A stretch of 64,000 nt of DNA from an uncultured Anaerolineaceae bacterium (GCA_964385355.1 CAYLOO010000003.1:2879-66878), one strand, 5' to 3'. Positions 15,000 to 46,722 are shown, counted from the stretch's first letter. Translations and numbers: made by a program. The notes: generated by a model from the sequence alone, not told the origin.

Positions 15000-16265
15000 A
15001 TGATGAAGGACGCAATTAGGGTTGATGATCTTGGTAAGCGGTATCGAATCGGCGGTTTGCCGAGTGGGTATCGTACATTGCGAGATGCTCTGGCGAGCAG
15101 CCTACGCCTGTTGAGTCGCCGCGACCCCCCACCATCGAAAGACACCATTTGGGCGTTGCGACATATTAATTTCAATGTGGAACGAGGACAAGTGCTCGGT
15201 ATTATCGGCCGGAATGGCGCCGGGAAAAGCACACTCTTAAAGTTGCTCTCACGCGTTACGGATCCTACAGAGGGAAAAGCGGAGATCTATGGGCGCGTCG
15301 GATCTCTTTTAGAGGTCGGCACAGGCTTTCACCCCGAACTCACCGGACGGGAAAATATTTATCTTAATGGCGCCATCCTGGGTATGAAGCGCACCGAGAT
15401 CAAGAGCAAGTTCGATGAAATCGTGGACTTCGCGGAGGTGCGAAAATTCATCGAGACACCGGTGAAACGCTATTCCAGTGGCATGTACCTTCGCCTTGCT
15501 TTCGCTGTAGCGGCTCATTTAGAACCGGAGATCCTCGTCGTTGACGAGGTTCTAGCAGTCGGAGATGCAGAGTTTCAGCGCAAATGTCTGGGCAAGATGA
15601 GCGATGTTGCCCATGAGGGGCGGACAGTACTTTTTGTCAGTCATAATATGTCGGCAATTCTTCGCCTGACCGAAGAGACGATTGTGTTGGATAAGGGTCA
15701 GATTGTAATGCGGGGCCCCACGTCTGAGGCCGTGGATTTCTATATGACCTCGGAAATGGCGCGTTCGGGGGAGCGCCGGTGGGAACCAGGCGATGATTAC
15801 CAGACCAACAACCTGTTTCATCCGCTTGCCATTCGCGTTCTTGATTCTCAAGGTCGAGTAGCAGATCGAGTGATCTCTTCCGAGGATTTCAGTGTGGAGT
15901 TCGAGTATGAGCTTCAGGAGGAGATAACCGGTTTGCGAGTGGGGATGTACTTGGCTACAAGCCGAGGCGAGCAGGTTTTCACATCCTTTGATACAGATAA
16001 TCCAGAGACATACGAACGTCTCATGGAACGACGCAAGGGTCACTATATCAGCCGCTGCTGCATCCCTCGAGACCTTCTCAATGGGGGGATCTTCATCCTC
16101 GGTGTAAATGCCAGTTCATTTCGTATACGGTCGTACTTCACAGATGAACATGCGCTGACCTTCACCGTCGATCCAACGGGCGCTCCGGGCAGCCAGTGGG
16201 CAGAACCTCGGCGTGGACCTGTTCGCCCGGCACTGAACTGGGAAATCACCGAGGCGGTCGCTTGA
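15000..16265 (+). CDS. wzt: Polysaccharide ABC exporter ATP-binding protein with C-terminal Wzt_C-like glycan-binding domain
   Basis: Walker A GIIGRNGAGKSTLLK, signature YSSGMYLRLAFA and Walker B ILVVDEVLAVGD. About 170 extra C-terminal residues (AIRVLDSQGRV...SVEFEYELQEE...GVNASSF) look like the beta-sandwich carbohydrate-binding module of O-antigen Wzt proteins. Confidence 0.85.
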   Translation: MMKDAIRVDDLGKRYRIGGLPSGYRTLRDALASSLRLLSRRDPPPSKDTIWALRHINFNVERGQVLGIIGRNGAGKSTLLKLLSRVTDPTEGKAEIYGRVGSLLEVGTGFHPELTGRENIYLNGAILGMKRTEIKSKFDEIVDFAEVRKFIETPVKRYSSGMYLRLAFAVAAHLEPEILVVDEVLAVGDAEFQRKCLGKMSDVAHEGRTVLFVSHNMSAILRLTEETIVLDKGQIVMRGPTSEAVDFYMTSEMARSGERRWEPGDDYQTNNLFHPLAIRVLDSQGRVADRVISSEDFSVEFEYELQEEITGLRVGMYLATSRGEQVFTSFDTDNPETYERLMERRKGHYISRCCIPRDLLNGGIFILGVNASSFRIRSYFTDEHALTFTVDPTGAPGSQWAEPRRGPVRPALNWEITEAVA

Positions 16266-45093: not shown

Positions 45094-46722
45094 TTGAATT
45101 TCCCTGAACCCTCGATGTATCTCAGGCAATGGAAGGCGGATCGTCGCCTCAATTGTCAGGTTGAGAAGGTCGACGAGTACCTGAATGGATTGGATGGGCT
45201 TAAGAACCAGCGTAGCGCGCCGGTTCTTTTTTTTAATGCATCCACAAGAATTCATCGTCTCAGTCTGAATGGTGCATACAGTCTGCTCGCCTCATGGACG
45301 CTGCGAGCTGCCGGCATCCCGGTCCGGTATGTCGTCTGTCAAAGAGGGATGCAGCAGTGCATCTTGGGGACGCGCCAAGACCGGCTTGATTCTCCACCGC
45401 CGTGCACGCGTTGCACACGCCTTAGCCGGAGACTTTTTCCACAGGGATTGACGATTCCCCTTCGTTTTCAACAAGAAACGACCGATACGATAAGTTCCAT
45501 GCTCCAAGATCTCACTTTCCCTGAGTTGGCTGCATGGGATTTTCAAAACATTCCTTTGGGCGAACTCTGTCTGCCTGGCCTGAGGTGGACGCTGCGCAGC
45601 CACCAAATTCCAGATACGCCAGCGATACGGCAGTTATTTCAGCAATACATCCTCTCCGCCTATAGTTTGTATACGAACTTCGTAGAGATCGTAGACCGGG
45701 AGAAACCGCGAGCGCTAGTAGTGTTCAATGGGATCTTCTATCCAGAAGCTATCGCCCGCCATGTTGCCCAGAACAGGGGTATTCCCGTCATAACTCATGA
45801 AGTGGGATTGCGCCCATACTCAACCTTTTTTTCTCATAGGGATGCAACTTTCCGTCAGGTAAATCTCGAACCAGATGCATTGTTAACCTCGTCTGAAAAT
45901 GATCGCTTAGATCAATACCTATCTGAGAGATTTCAAGGGGATTTCACCATGGCCGGCATTCGATTCTGGCCGAAGATGGTAGATCTACCAAGTTGGTTTC
46001 TCGAGCGGATGAAGAAATTTCAACAGAATGTTGTTGTCTTTACGAATGTAGTCTTCGACACCAGTCAAATACATGCGAATACACTCTTTTCAGATATGTT
46101 CGCTTGGCTGGACATGTTGAAGCCCATTATTCAGTCTCATCCGGAAACGCTCTTCATCATCAGAGCACACCCTGACGAAGAACGACCCGGGAAGCGAAGT
46201 CGTGAAGCTGTTAAAGGTTGGATTGCACACCAAGGGCTTTTCGAATTCGAGAATGTCGTCTTCTTTGAGCCGGGCGATCCAGTGAGCTCCTACGAATTAA
46301 TCAACCATTCGAAACTCGTCCTTATCTATAATTCATCGATCGGACTTGAGGCGTCAATCCTGGGGGCAGCGGTTCTCACCGCCGGCCGGGCGAGATTCAC
46401 TCAAATTCCAACGGTGTTTTTCCCTGAATCCCAGAAAAAGTACGAAGAATTATTATTCGGATTCTTAGACGCACAGGAAATCGAGATTCCCCCATCGTTC
46501 CGAGAGAATGCTCGCAGCTTTCTTTTCCATGAATTATTTGCAGCCTCCCTGGACCTGTCGGAATTCCTGGAGCAGGACGAGTCCCTTCAGGGAATGGTCA
46601 CTTTTTCAGGCTTTTCACCAGGTTGTCTGCAATCATCCCGTCCTTTGGAAGTCATACGAAATGGCATACTGCATGACGCCCCGTTCCTGCTAGGTCCAGA
46701 TGTGGATGTCGAGAGTGGATGA
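45094..46722 (+). CDS. GT-B-like protein resembling KpsC/KpsS capsule-synthesis family; paralogue of 16262..17872 with a 4-Cys insert
   Basis: ALVVFNGIFYPEAIARHVAQNRGIPVITHEVG, VVVFTNVVFDTSQ, FIIRAHPDE and VLIYNSSIGLEASILGAAVLTAG are colinear with the 16262 protein. It has an extra CQRGMQQC...CTRC segment. Starts at TTG 45094 or ATG 45115. Confidence 0.4.
   Translation: MNFPEPSMYLRQWKADRRLNCQVEKVDEYLNGLDGLKNQRSAPVLFFNASTRIHRLSLNGAYSLLASWTLRAAGIPVRYVVCQRGMQQCILGTRQDRLDSPPPCTRCTRLSRRLFPQGLTIPLRFQQETTDTISSMLQDLTFPELAAWDFQNIPLGELCLPGLRWTLRSHQIPDTPAIRQLFQQYILSAYSLYTNFVEIVDREKPRALVVFNGIFYPEAIARHVAQNRGIPVITHEVGLRPYSTFFSHRDATFRQVNLEPDALLTSSENDRLDQYLSERFQGDFTMAGIRFWPKMVDLPSWFLERMKKFQQNVVVFTNVVFDTSQIHANTLFSDMFAWLDMLKPIIQSHPETLFIIRAHPDEERPGKRSREAVKGWIAHQGLFEFENVVFFEPGDPVSSYELINHSKLVLIYNSSIGLEASILGAAVLTAGRARFTQIPTVFFPESQKKYEELLFGFLDAQEIEIPPSFRENARSFLFHELFAASLDLSEFLEQDESLQGMVTFSGFSPGCLQSSRPLEVIRNGILHDAPFLLGPDVDVESG

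Follow-up and report, generated by a model that had tools for sequence, protein, structure and literature searches.

Two KpsC/KpsS-like proteins as candidate CMP-nonulosonate transferases in an Anaerolineales surface-glycan locus

Which proteins transfer the two nonulosonic acids of a locus that carries two separate NeuB modules? The window analysed here (the whole stretch of DNA, 64,000 nucleotides) comes from an uncultured Anaerolineales bacterium and holds a large locus for a cell-surface sugar polymer. Two of its genes, encoding proteins that we call P1 and P2, most likely attach the two sialic-acid-like sugars of the locus to the cell-surface polymer; both proteins are related, with much divergence, to an enzyme class already known, and do not represent a new kind of system. 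Our preferred reading, to which we give a probability of about two in three, is that P1 and P2 are two dedicated CMP-nonulosonate transferases, each serving one of the two NeuB modules.

Two distant paralogues, each beside a sugar-acid module

The genes that matter for the argument are these:

14136-16265, plus strand: Wzm (14136-14996) and Wzt (15000-16265) pair, from Pfam
16262-17872, plus strand: P1, a 536-residue KpsC/KpsS-like protein, probably of modified GT-B fold (P0001 family), from translation, AF2, Foldseek, hhalign and synteny
18808-26694, plus strand: nonulosonate module 1, from Pfam and NCBIfam, with PseB, RmlD-like, methyltransferase, NeuB+SAF, GT4, AAC(3)-like, DUF4910 and CTP_transf_3 genes
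18808-19821, plus strand: PseB of module 1 (492 bits on the NCBIfam PseB model, cut-off 408)
19824-20744, plus strand: RmlD-like reductase of module 1
21599-22669, plus strand: NeuB+SAF of module 1
22669-23772, plus strand: GT4 of module 1
25924-26694, plus strand: CTP_transf_3 cytidylyltransferase of module 1
30816-32273, plus strand: P3, a 485-residue remote GT-B relative, TagB/TagF-like or BFO_1060-like, from Pfam, NCBIfam and hhalign
42961-45079, plus strand: nonulosonate module 2, NeuA-HAD and SAF-less NeuB, from Pfam and NCBIfam
42961-44211, plus strand: NeuA-type cytidylyltransferase of module 2, fused to a KdsC-type HAD phosphatase
44204-45079, plus strand: SAF-less NeuB of module 2
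45094-46722, plus strand: P2, a 542-residue KpsC/KpsS-like protein, probably of modified GT-B fold (P0002 family), from translation, Pfam, NCBIfam, AF2, Foldseek, hhalign and synteny

The open reading frames of P1, P2 and P3 exist as the first-pass annotation of this DNA had described them, and it was also correct, according to Pfam and NCBIfam, in placing P1 upstream of the PseB/NeuB block and P2 right after the NeuA-HAD/NeuB pair. The start of P1 overlaps the stop of wzt by 4 nt (TTGA), and the identical overlap recurs in two loci, L009 and L010, that are homologous at about 50% identity. Downstream of P1 come a methyltransferase, PseB, the RmlD-like gene and then NeuB, and the gene order of module 1 is the same in L008, L009 and L010. 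P2 starts 14 nt past the stop of a NeuB gene that itself follows NeuA-HAD, and in L004, L006 and L007 P2 homologues are likewise preceded by the NeuA-HAD/NeuB pair.

P1 and P2 are true but distant paralogues. BLASTP aligns them with 25% identity over 130 residues (E=2e-10), and the profiles of the two families, built from 56 homologues each, align over 308 columns (probability 99.4%, E=8.7e-22); the colinear part thus runs from about residue 175 to 490. The two had been called colinear without such a boundary, which is right for this region and does not extend to the N-terminal ~170 residues, where profile-profile comparison gave no significant alignment. The stretches originally quoted side by side, VVLLCTNVVGDSLALD with VVVFTNVVFDTSQIHA, LVVRVHPAE with FIIRAHPDE, and GLVYTTTVGLEMAMSGVPVISAG with VLIYNSSIGLEASILGAAVLTAG, do align.

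Fold, motifs and the resemblance to epimerases

Scored against Capsule_synth (PF05159, gathering cut-off 20 bits), P2 reaches 41.3 bits (E=1.7e-10) over residues 310-436, and P1 falls below the cut-off with 17.6 bits (E=0.0029); among the matches listed, a precomputed PF05159 match is present for nearly all P2 homologues and for about one third of P1 homologues. AF2 models of the two proteins (pLDDT 90.6 for P1 and 88.4 for P2) were compared with the PDB by Foldseek. The top four matches for P2 were all KpsC, and the best TM-scores for P1 (0.47-0.53) were to KpsC and WbbB, the two structures that had been suggested for comparison. TM-scores of P1 and P2 to KpsC are about 0.45-0.53, with RMSD of 7-10 Å; for KpsC and WbbB together the ranges are 0.42-0.53 and 7-11 Å, and ordinary GT-B epimerases appear at similar E-values. 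Both family profiles find KpsC (6mgd) among PDB sequences, and hhalign gives 89.8% for the P2 family with KpsS and 79% for the P1 family with KpsC. The initial label "KpsC/KpsS-like" is well borne out for P2, by Capsule_synth score, Foldseek ranking and motifs, and less firmly for P1.

The NCBIfam model NF046086 (BFO_1060 family) scores P2 at 45.2 bits, P3 at 24.8 and P1 at 12.2, all below its curated cut-off of 200; at E<=0.001 it matches 56 of 56 members of the P2 family, 42 of 42 of the P3 family and 6 of 56 of the P1 family. Every NCBIfam match of P1 and P2 lies far under its curated cut-off. Judged by sequence, the three proteins are distant relatives of the BFO_1060 family and not members of it.

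Five motifs (ExG, [N]xxxD, HP, SxxGxE and GxxxY) are common to P1, P2, the N- and C-terminal modules of Escherichia coli KpsC, and KpsS, and the key motif residues are invariant in the 56 homologues of each family. The motifs located in the two proteins, together with a cysteine cluster in P2, are listed here:

16955-16981, plus strand: P1 ExG motif VTYEFGEQR, with E235 aligned to KpsC Glu66
17228-17254, plus strand: P1 NxxxD motif CTNVVGDSL, with N325 and D329 invariant
17345-17371, plus strand: P1 HP motif VVRVHPAEL, from alignment and conservation
17558-17605, plus strand: P1 C-terminal motif SAGCSHYRGRGFTYDP, matching GQPWYAGWGLTDD of KpsC and GNALYDIKGLTYQG of KpsS
45337-45414, plus strand: P2 Cys4 cluster C82-x6-C89-x14-C104-x2-C107, from conservation and a sequence check
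45790-45816, plus strand: P2 ExG motif ITHEVGLRP, with E236 aligned to the KpsC general base Glu66 by MAFFT
46039-46074, plus strand: P2 NxxxD motif FTNVVFDTSQIH, with D322 at or next to the KpsC nucleophile Asp160
46156-46182, plus strand: P2 HP motif IIRAHPDEE, with H359 and P360 invariant and aligned to the HP of KpsC, KpsS and 6mgd

For KpsC, catalytic roles have been described for Asp160 (nucleophile), Glu66 (general base) and the HP motif (PMC10148158). E236 of P2 and E235 of P1 share a MAFFT column with E66 and E393 of KpsC and E112 of KpsS. H235, E236, V237 and G238 are invariant in the P2 family; E235 of P1 sits in a "YE" pair, a motif reported for KpsS1 (Glu132) and KrkA (PMC12887879). 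Not all alignments agree on the Asp of P1 and P2, which falls exactly in the KpsC/KpsS nucleophile column or one residue away from it: hhalign pairs D322 of P2 with D160 of KpsC, and it is displaced by one residue in MAFFT and in hhalign to KpsS, while D329 of P1 is paired by hhalign with D237 of KpsS, and N325 with the KpsS Gln. N318 and D322 are invariant in the P2 family. The Gln of the "invariant QXXXD" is replaced in P1 and P2 by an invariant Asn, with the i/i+4 spacing to the Asp kept. RAHPDE of P2 and RVHPAE of P1, invariant or nearly so, align with KVHPD and KPHPD of KpsC and with KHHPMD of KpsS. If P1 and P2 work as KpsC and WbbB do, CMP would be held by the HP motif and the SxxGxE loop. 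The reaction would be a retaining double displacement with the NxxxD Asp (D329 in P1, D322 in P2) as its nucleophile, and the acceptor hydroxyl would be activated by the ExG Glu (E235 in P1, E236 in P2).

The four-Cys segment reported for P2 alone is real: C82, C89, C104 and C107 are kept in 56 of 56 P2 homologues, and none of them has a counterpart in the P1 family. MAFFT sets a Cys-free segment of similar length in P1 opposite it, so that the difference is one of motif rather than a clean insertion. The middle spacing is x14 and not x19 as first given, and the zinc ribbon first proposed was rejected, since such a fold needs two CxxC knuckles on beta-hairpins, the spacing here is CX6C...CX2C, and DSSP of the model shows no paired hairpins; C104 and C107 lie at the N-terminus of a helix (104-114). 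From its conservation, the cluster is a putative site that probably binds a structural metal.

The epimerases among the structural matches introduce the main rival explanation, that P1 and P2 are GT-B UDP-hexosamine hydrolases of NeuC/LegG/PseG type, possibly 2-epimerising, each feeding its NeuB; two neuABC-like modules would then be complete. Pfam and NCBIfam found no recognisable NeuC, LegG or PseG in module 1 or module 2, and the missing hydrolase could be a GT-B protein. UDP-GlcNAc 2-epimerases (NeuC/LegG type; PF02350) are typical NeuB neighbours, have the GT-B fold and an N-domain ExGLR motif, head the Foldseek list for P1 by E-value (4e-10), and come just behind KpsC in the ranking for P2. 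P2 has a weak Epimerase_2 match (17.5 bits against a cut-off of 30.6; E=0.0019) over residues 193-429, spanning both domains, and P1 has none; 8 of the 56 P2 homologues weakly match wecB (TIGR00236), and THEVGLRP of P2 resembles the epimerase motif HVEAGLRT of the genome's own WecB-like protein. However, the sequences HRRENFG, DSGGLQEE, TERPE and PVHPNP of the genome's own epimerase (HRRE, DSGGxQEE, TERPE and PxHxNP in the wider family) are all missing from P1 and P2, and the positions of the epimerase motifs hold NxxxD[ST], SxxGxE, GxxxYxGxG[FL]T and [RK]xHP[DA] of the KpsC/KpsS type. A canonical Epimerase_2 gene exists elsewhere in the window's genome, and hhalign to the genome's WecB-type epimerase reaches only 22.8% for the P2 family and 1.3% for the P1 family. 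The Capsule_synth and BFO_1060 E-values of P2 are better than that of Epimerase_2 by at least 7 orders of magnitude, and TM-scores are higher to KpsC than to epimerases. The 9-phosphate-type phosphatase fused in module 2 implies a sugar-6-phosphate substrate, so that no UDP-sugar hydrolase would be needed there, and in module 1 a hydrolase could be encoded by the conserved GT4-fold gene that follows NeuB and precedes the cytidylyltransferase. Since it also leaves two nonulosonates with no identifiable transferase, we regard the hydrolase explanation as unlikely, even though a pathway enzyme would equally show the tight one-to-one linkage to NeuB described below.

Pairing with NeuB across the order

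In the window's genome (89.6% complete), Capsule_synth-like genes number exactly two and so do NeuB genes, and all four lie inside the window. No match to KdsA (KDO8P synthase) was found in the genome at this completeness, which makes CMP-Kdo an unlikely donor for P1 and P2. In a sample of 81 genomes from the same order, 45 have both families. A NeuB gene lies on the same strand no more than 3 kb upstream in 39 of 41 P2 homologues (SAF-less, mostly ~290-325 residues) and no more than 6 kb downstream in 30 of 34 P1 homologues (SAF-type, ~360-430 residues), counts that overstate the support because related genomes are not independent. Genomes with a single paralogue carry the cognate NeuB only: two have P2 alone with the short NeuB alone, and one has P1 alone with the long NeuB alone. 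In a relative with neither family, TIGR04396/BFO_1060-like proteins take their place beside the NeuA-HAD/NeuB pair. The earlier proposal that each paralogue uses the nonulosonate of the adjacent module gains from this conserved synteny, and from the matching presence and absence in the 81 genomes, strong support that stops short of proof.

P3, whose family occurs in 31 of the 81 genomes, a subset of those holding P1 and P2, was rightly said to share with the other two only the HP and STM..EA region; BLASTP against P1 and P2 is not significant. It carries HP and STxxxE motifs without the Asp of NxxxD; in hhalign comparisons its probability is 86% against the P1 family, where the VGD position falls in a gap, and 4% against the P2 family. 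On Glyphos_transf (PF04464), another search that had been proposed, P3 scores 25.1 bits against a cut-off of 22.1, with the match limited to residues 420-474 and profile positions 309-363 of 367, and P1 and P2 have no match. The P3 profile found no TagF structure among PDB sequences. The Glyphos_transf match, in the same locus, could suggest that the donor of P1 and P2 is a CDP-alditol (as for TagF-like enzymes, which also have GT-B C-terminal domains with HP-type motifs) or an NDP-hexose, and that adjacency to NeuB reflects a shared glycan locus only. This we consider highly improbable: P1 and P2 themselves lack the match, the cognate NeuB keeps a constant place and orientation in ~90% of relatives and its retention follows that of the single paralogue, and the motif set of P1 and P2 matches that of CMP-ulosonate enzymes.

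Proposed reactions and known counterparts

Under the preferred reading of two dedicated transferases, P1 and P2 would be soluble, cytoplasmic modified GT-B glycosyltransferases with CMP-activated nonulosonic acid donors. P2 is predicted to transfer a Kdn/Neu-type acid, the product of NeuA-HAD and the SAF-less NeuB, and P1 a 9-deoxy (Pse/fusaminic-like) acid, the product of PseB, the RmlD-like reductase, NeuB+SAF and the cytidylyltransferase; the acceptor may be a glycopolymer that Wzm/Wzt exports after its assembly in the cytoplasm.

A different use of the same chemistry is possible, if tentative: P1, and perhaps P2, may transfer the CMP-ulosonate not as repeat-unit decoration but to form a short linker of sugar acid on a lipid anchor, which would prime export, or as a single non-reducing-end cap, in which case the P1 cap would terminate the chain and be read by the C-terminal domain of Wzt. 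The overlap of wzt with P1, here and in the two homologous loci, is consistent with such a role, as are the Wzt_C carbohydrate-binding-type domain that Pfam finds in Wzt and the methyltransferase directly after P1 in every context examined. The host's class, however, is commonly regarded as monoderm, and P1 and P2 contain no WbbB-type coiled-coil ruler or polymerase fusion. Precedents for both variants are described in PMC12887879: the WbbB GT99 module adds a beta-Kdo cap to an O-antigen that depends on an ABC transporter, and KpsS/KpsC make the poly-Kdo linker of ABC-exported capsules. The GT99 module, the beta-Kdo chain terminator of Raoultella terrigena and Klebsiella O12, is a structural match (8csb, TM-score 0.42-0.48) from a pathway whose Wzt likewise has a domain that binds glycan, and P1 could be a functional analogue of it; unlike P1 and P2, WbbB is multidomain, with coiled-coil ruler and polymerase modules, and no significant sequence similarity to it was found. 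A bolder joint reading, which we think doubtful, would make P1 and P2 the founding members of two new families of glycosyltransferases, sisters to GT107, GT118, GT99 and GT140, with P2 the first KpsC-fold transferase of Kdn/Neu type, bearing a structural Cys4 metal site, and P1, translationally coupled to Wzt, a WbbB-like terminator that caps a Chloroflexota cell-wall glycopolymer; the 9-deoxy nonulosonate cap would then be the export signal read by the Wzt C-terminal domain.

Among the nearest known counterparts of P1 and P2 are KpsC and KpsS (PF05159; the KpsC modules form GT107), which act as retaining beta-Kdo transferases in making group 2/3 capsule. Shared with them are probably the modified GT-B fold, which in the retaining beta-Kdo transferases has a helical subdomain, and also the order of the ExG, xxxD, HP, SxxGxE and GxxxY motifs, a cytoplasmic setting with an ABC-2 type exporter and, as we infer, a CMP-activated 2-keto-3-deoxy sugar acid as donor. 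Unlike KpsC and KpsS, P1 and P2 (below 20% identity, with the C-terminal ~110-140 residues alone aligning significantly) are about 540 residues long with a fuller N-terminal domain, have Asn for the QXXXD Gln and, in P2, the Cys4 site, and belong to a host that is one of the Chloroflexota, without a detected KdsA, and not a Gram-negative capsule producer.

The first-pass annotation knew of no nonulosonate transfer by this fold, which was mistaken. KpsS1 of Acinetobacter baumannii, a KpsS homologue, is a retaining Pse5Ac7Ac pseudaminyltransferase that founds GT118 (Walklett et al. 2024, cited in PMC12887879); like P1 and P2 it is KpsS-like and encoded beside a nonulosonate module, its activity is the one proposed here, and its YE motif corresponds to that of P1. 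KpsS1 is reported to be ~30% identical to KpsS, whereas P1 and P2 are much more distant and are connected to KpsS1 through KpsS only, and the predicted donor differs at least for P2. For the Pse-/Leg-derivative transferases Tanf_01245/TFUB4_00887/BFO_1060 of Tannerella forsythia, which add a terminal nonulosonate, genetic evidence dates from 2017 (PMC5420450). Among the members examined, the P2 and P3 families and a few of the P1 family match their model NF046086, the locus proteins at only 12-45 bits of the 200 required. The T. forsythia enzymes share D/E-D/E-G and HP motifs with P1 and P2, are ~445 residues long with a described TagB-like domain, and act in protein O-glycosylation (PMC5420450).

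The glycan assembly locus and its two nonulosonate modules

By Pfam and NCBIfam searches, a glycan assembly locus with all genes on the same strand occupies 12.5-52 kb of the window. Two of its proteins, P1 and P2, each accompany a nonulosonate gene set, and a third, P3, lies between them. The gene order is:

Locus start: MarR and an Fcl-like epimerase, Wzm, Wzt with a Wzt_C domain, then P1 (16262-17872, 536 aa)
After P1: methyltransferase, PseB, RmlD-like reductase, methyltransferase, NeuB with SAF domain
After this NeuB: GT4, AAC(3)-like protein, DUF4910 protein, CTP_transf_3 cytidylyltransferase
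Mid-locus: several GT2s, P3 (30816-32273, 485 aa), GFO/IDH oxidoreductase, PMT-like GT-C, SDR, sulfotransferase
Module 2 stretch: NeuA fused to a KdsC-type HAD phosphatase, SAF-less NeuB, then P2 (45094-46722, 542 aa)
After P2: methyltransferase, PIG-L deacetylase, GT2, third CTP_transf_3

The best reading, to which we assign a probability of roughly two in three, is that P1 and P2 are each the transferase for one nonulosonate module. P1 begins at a TTG lying within the wzt stop (TTGA, a 4-nt overlap at 16262-16265), with GAGG nine nucleotides upstream. The same 4-nt overlap occurs in two loci of relatives (L009, L010; 10001-10004) although identity of their P1 homologues is just about 50%; its retention points to exporter and transferase being translationally coupled. 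At the other module, 14 nt separate the NeuB stop from the P2 start. P1, P2 and P3 all lack any hydrophobic stretch that could form a transmembrane helix.

Module 1, the gene set beside P1 (18808-26694), contains a bona fide PseB (492 bits, exceeding the NCBIfam equivalog cut-off) and the RmlD-like reductase but no DegT-type aminotransferase, a combination that predicts a 5-acylamino-7-hydroxy-9-deoxy nonulosonate rather than Pse or Leg; the product is presumably fusaminic-acid-like. The source of the window, a 3.1-Mb MAG of 89.6% completeness, encodes exactly two Capsule_synth-like proteins, two NeuB proteins and three locus-borne CMP-type cytidylyltransferases; no match to KDO8P synthase was found in this whole genome, and CMP-Kdo is therefore an unlikely donor. 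Counting the third CTP_transf_3, the locus has three CMP-type activating enzymes against two NeuB and three GT-B proteins with an HP motif (P1, P2 and P3). Next to that third gene, on its downstream side, come genes for a D-2-hydroxyacid dehydrogenase and an SDR, and this trio (49425-51936 in the window) is also found downstream of P2 homologues in loci L006 and L007. A PAPS-type sulfotransferase (41823-42899) lies immediately upstream of module 2, the gene pair preceding P2, and sulfotransferases occur in L007 as well; the locus polymer may be sulfated.

Relation of P1 and P2 to KpsC and KpsS

All motifs that the first-pass annotation quoted for P1 and P2 are found in them. BLASTP between the two gives 25% identity (E=2e-10) over 130 C-terminal residues only, and profiles built from 56 homologues of each align over 308 columns (probability 99.4%, E=8.7e-22); P1 and P2 are therefore real but old paralogues. 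The colinearity ascribed to them holds for about residues 175-490 but not for the N-terminal 170 or so, where the alignment is not significant. The extra Cys segment noticed in P2 is real (C82, C89, C104 and C107, conserved in 56 of 56 homologues, with no counterpart Cys in the P1 family), but its spacing is CX6C-x14-CX2C, not x19. Given that spacing, and the position of the second pair at the N-terminus of a helix in the AF2 model, we discard the description as a zinc ribbon in favor of a predicted, probably structural, Cys4 metal site.

The proposed likeness to KpsC and KpsS was supported by Pfam model Capsule_synth for P2 (41.3 bits, threshold 20) but not for P1 (17.6 bits). Single-sequence phmmer searches of both proteins against PDB sequences returned nothing useful and profiles were required; the best PDB-sequence match of both family profiles is KpsC (6mgd), HP segment included. 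AF2 models (pLDDT 88-91) were compared by Foldseek, and for P2 the first four ranks are all KpsC entries. For P1, TM-scores clearly favor KpsC and WbbB (0.47-0.53, versus about 0.35 for epimerases), but the E-values of UDP-GlcNAc 2-epimerases are slightly better. Five motifs are common, in one order, to P1, P2 and the KpsC and KpsS of E. coli CFT073.

Motifs shared in MAFFT alignment
ExG: P2 THEVGLRP; P1 TYEFGEQR; KpsC RLEDGF; KpsS FEEGY
xxxD: P2 NVVFD; P1 NVVGD; KpsC QTFND, QVEDD; KpsS QVYND
HP: present in P2, P1, KpsC and KpsS
SxxGxE: present in P2, P1 and KpsC; SxxGxS in KpsS
GxxxY(xGxG[FL]T): P2 GRARF only; P1 HYRGRGFTYD; KpsC WYAGWGLTDD; KpsS GNALYDIKGLT

According to Doyle et al. 2023 (PMC10148158), KpsC works by double displacement with the QXXXD Asp (Asp160) as nucleophile and Glu66 as general base, and CMP-sialic-acid enzymes also have its HP motif. 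P2 E236 and P1 E235 align in the same column as Glu66. Two hhalign runs match the xxxD Asp of P1 and P2 exactly to its counterpart, whereas the remaining alignments shift it by one residue. Both families differ from KpsC and KpsS in having an invariant Asn in place of the QXXXD Gln.

The first-pass annotation took nonulosonate transfer to be undescribed for this fold, a claim that two sets of enzymes make out of date. According to one report (PMC12887879), A. baumannii KpsS1, about 30% identical to KpsS, is by experiment a retaining pseudaminyltransferase and founds GT118, while KrkA founds GT140. In T. forsythia, Tanf_01245 and TFUB4_00887, of which BFO_1060 is an orthologue, are required to add a terminal Pse or Leg derivative, and have D/E-D/E-G and HP motifs (PMC5420450). 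The model for this T. forsythia family, NF046086, has sub-threshold matches to 56 of 56 P2-family, 42 of 42 P3-family and 6 of 56 P1-family members.

Neither NeuB module contains a hydrolase of the NeuC, LegG or PseG type, and 2-epimerases also appear among the fold-search matches of P1 and P2, so that these proteins could themselves be the missing hydrolases. Because Foldseek E-values for KpsC-like and epimerase-like folds are similar, we compared signature motifs and hhalign scores, taking as reference the one canonical Epimerase_2 gene of the genome, a WecB-like protein on another contig (C158:2094-3116). This epimerase carries HVEAGLRT, HRRENFG, PVHPNP, DSGGLQEE and TERPE, whereas P2 has a counterpart for HVEAGLRT only and carries KpsC-type motifs at the positions of the others. 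By hhalign, the P2 and P1 families reach 22.8% and 1.3% to the epimerase, versus 89.8% for the P2 family to KpsS and 79% for the P1 family to KpsC; the P2 E-values for Capsule_synth and BFO_1060 beat that for Epimerase_2 by some seven orders of magnitude or more. Moreover, the 9-phosphate-type phosphatase fused to NeuA implies a sugar-6-phosphate substrate, such that module 2 needs no UDP-sugar hydrolase, and in module 1 the hydrolase could be the GT4-fold protein whose conserved gene lies after NeuB and before the cytidylyltransferase. A hydrolase role for P1 and P2 thus appears improbable. As candidate transferases, they are two lineage-restricted, very divergent, uncharacterised branches of the KpsC/KpsS/KpsS1 superfamily.

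Distribution and synteny in relatives

Close homologues of P1 and P2 carry the source names Anaerolineales or Chloroflexota. A class-wide search, with matches in 6 of 151 genomes, showed both families to be mostly restricted to a single order. Neighborhoods of six homologues (50-57% identity) are the same as in the window:

P1 family: MarR, epimerase, Wzm, Wzt, P1, methyltransferase, PseB, RmlD-like, NeuB with SAF, GT4, cytidylyltransferase
P2 family: SDR, NeuA(-HAD), NeuB, P2, methyltransferase, PIG-L, GT2

Among 81 evenly selected genomes of the order, the P1 family is found in 48, the P2 family in 48 and both in 45; the two occur in the same taxonomic families and were not found in the others. 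The pairing with NeuB may be read from MAGs that are 89-96% complete, with counts that serve as illustration and not as a statistical test, the relatives not being independent. Of 41 P2 homologues with a NeuB on their contig, 39 have it within 3 kb, and P2-linked NeuB genes within 6 kb are upstream on the same strand in 40 of 40 cases, their open frames mostly measuring about 290-325 aa. In the P1 family, 30 of 34 homologues have a NeuB no more than 6 kb away; in each case it is co-oriented with P1 and lies downstream, and its open frames span 359-432 aa. Four genomes with a single paralogue have one strong NeuB match apiece: the adjacent short type in G190 and G203 (P2 only), the long type on the same contig in G186 (P1 only), and in G226 (P1 only) just a partial NeuB on another contig, which may be of either type.

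In G191, which has neither family, two TIGR04396 "surface carbohydrate biosynthesis" proteins flank NeuA-HAD and SAF-less NeuB (L013, G191:C549, 115-5131). One scores 293 bits, above cut-off, and both match the BFO_1060 model over nearly full length; it looks as if a related family of putative nonulosonate transferases has taken over the P2 position. The NeuB cluster at the G182 locus is of another kind and was uninformative. A 349-aa protein without Pfam match separates NeuB from the P2 homologue in two loci (L004, 8947-9996; L005, 211-1260), and probably accounts for the class of about a dozen order genomes with NeuB-to-P2 spacing of about 1.1-1.2 kb. Some P2-linked NeuB matches, about ten in all, occupy open frames of 635-757 aa instead of about 300 aa (e.g. 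G187:C21:4477-5184 and G165:C2:279609-280316), which may be fusions to NeuA-HAD or another domain.

To our knowledge, nonulosonic-acid transferases beyond the classical sialyltransferase families are few, and there is no described example from Chloroflexota. Our literature searches found no paper on P1/P2-type enzymes in Anaerolineae and nothing relevant on nonulosonic acids in Anaerolineae or on teichulosonic-acid transferases. The concept itself is not new, as KpsS1 and the T. forsythia enzymes have established it. Metagenomic homologues of each family number in the thousands, almost all of them without a name or labelled just as hypothetical proteins, and each family occurs in about 60% of the sampled genomes of one Anaerolineales-level order. 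Assigning P1 and P2 would make a large conserved cell-envelope glycan locus readable for annotators of an abundant, mostly uncultured lineage, broaden the known donor range of the KpsC/KpsS/KpsS1 superfamily, and provide a test of Asp-nucleophile double displacement on nine-carbon sugar acids.

P3, a weaker relative

P3 had been called a weaker GT-B-like relative, which is fair: BLASTP against P1 and P2 is not significant, and similarity to the P1 family emerges by profile, in the C-terminal Rossmann half (86% probability, versus only 4% for the P2 profile). It carries the HP and STxxxE motifs, with an alignment gap opposite the VGD of P1. A search with the P3-family profile found no solved structural relative, and the Pfam match to Glyphos_transf, a check suggested by the first-pass annotation, covers the last 55 residues only. 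The family is markedly better conserved (identity of 63-93% for the top 120 matches, versus about 50-57% for most P1- and P2-family matches) and less widespread (31 of 81 order genomes, versus 48 for P1 and P2), always inside the set that has the P1 or P2 family, and shows no link to a NeuB. P3 may act as a phosphotransferase similar to TagB/TagF; alternatively, it could resemble BFO_1060 and transfer what the third cytidylyltransferase makes.
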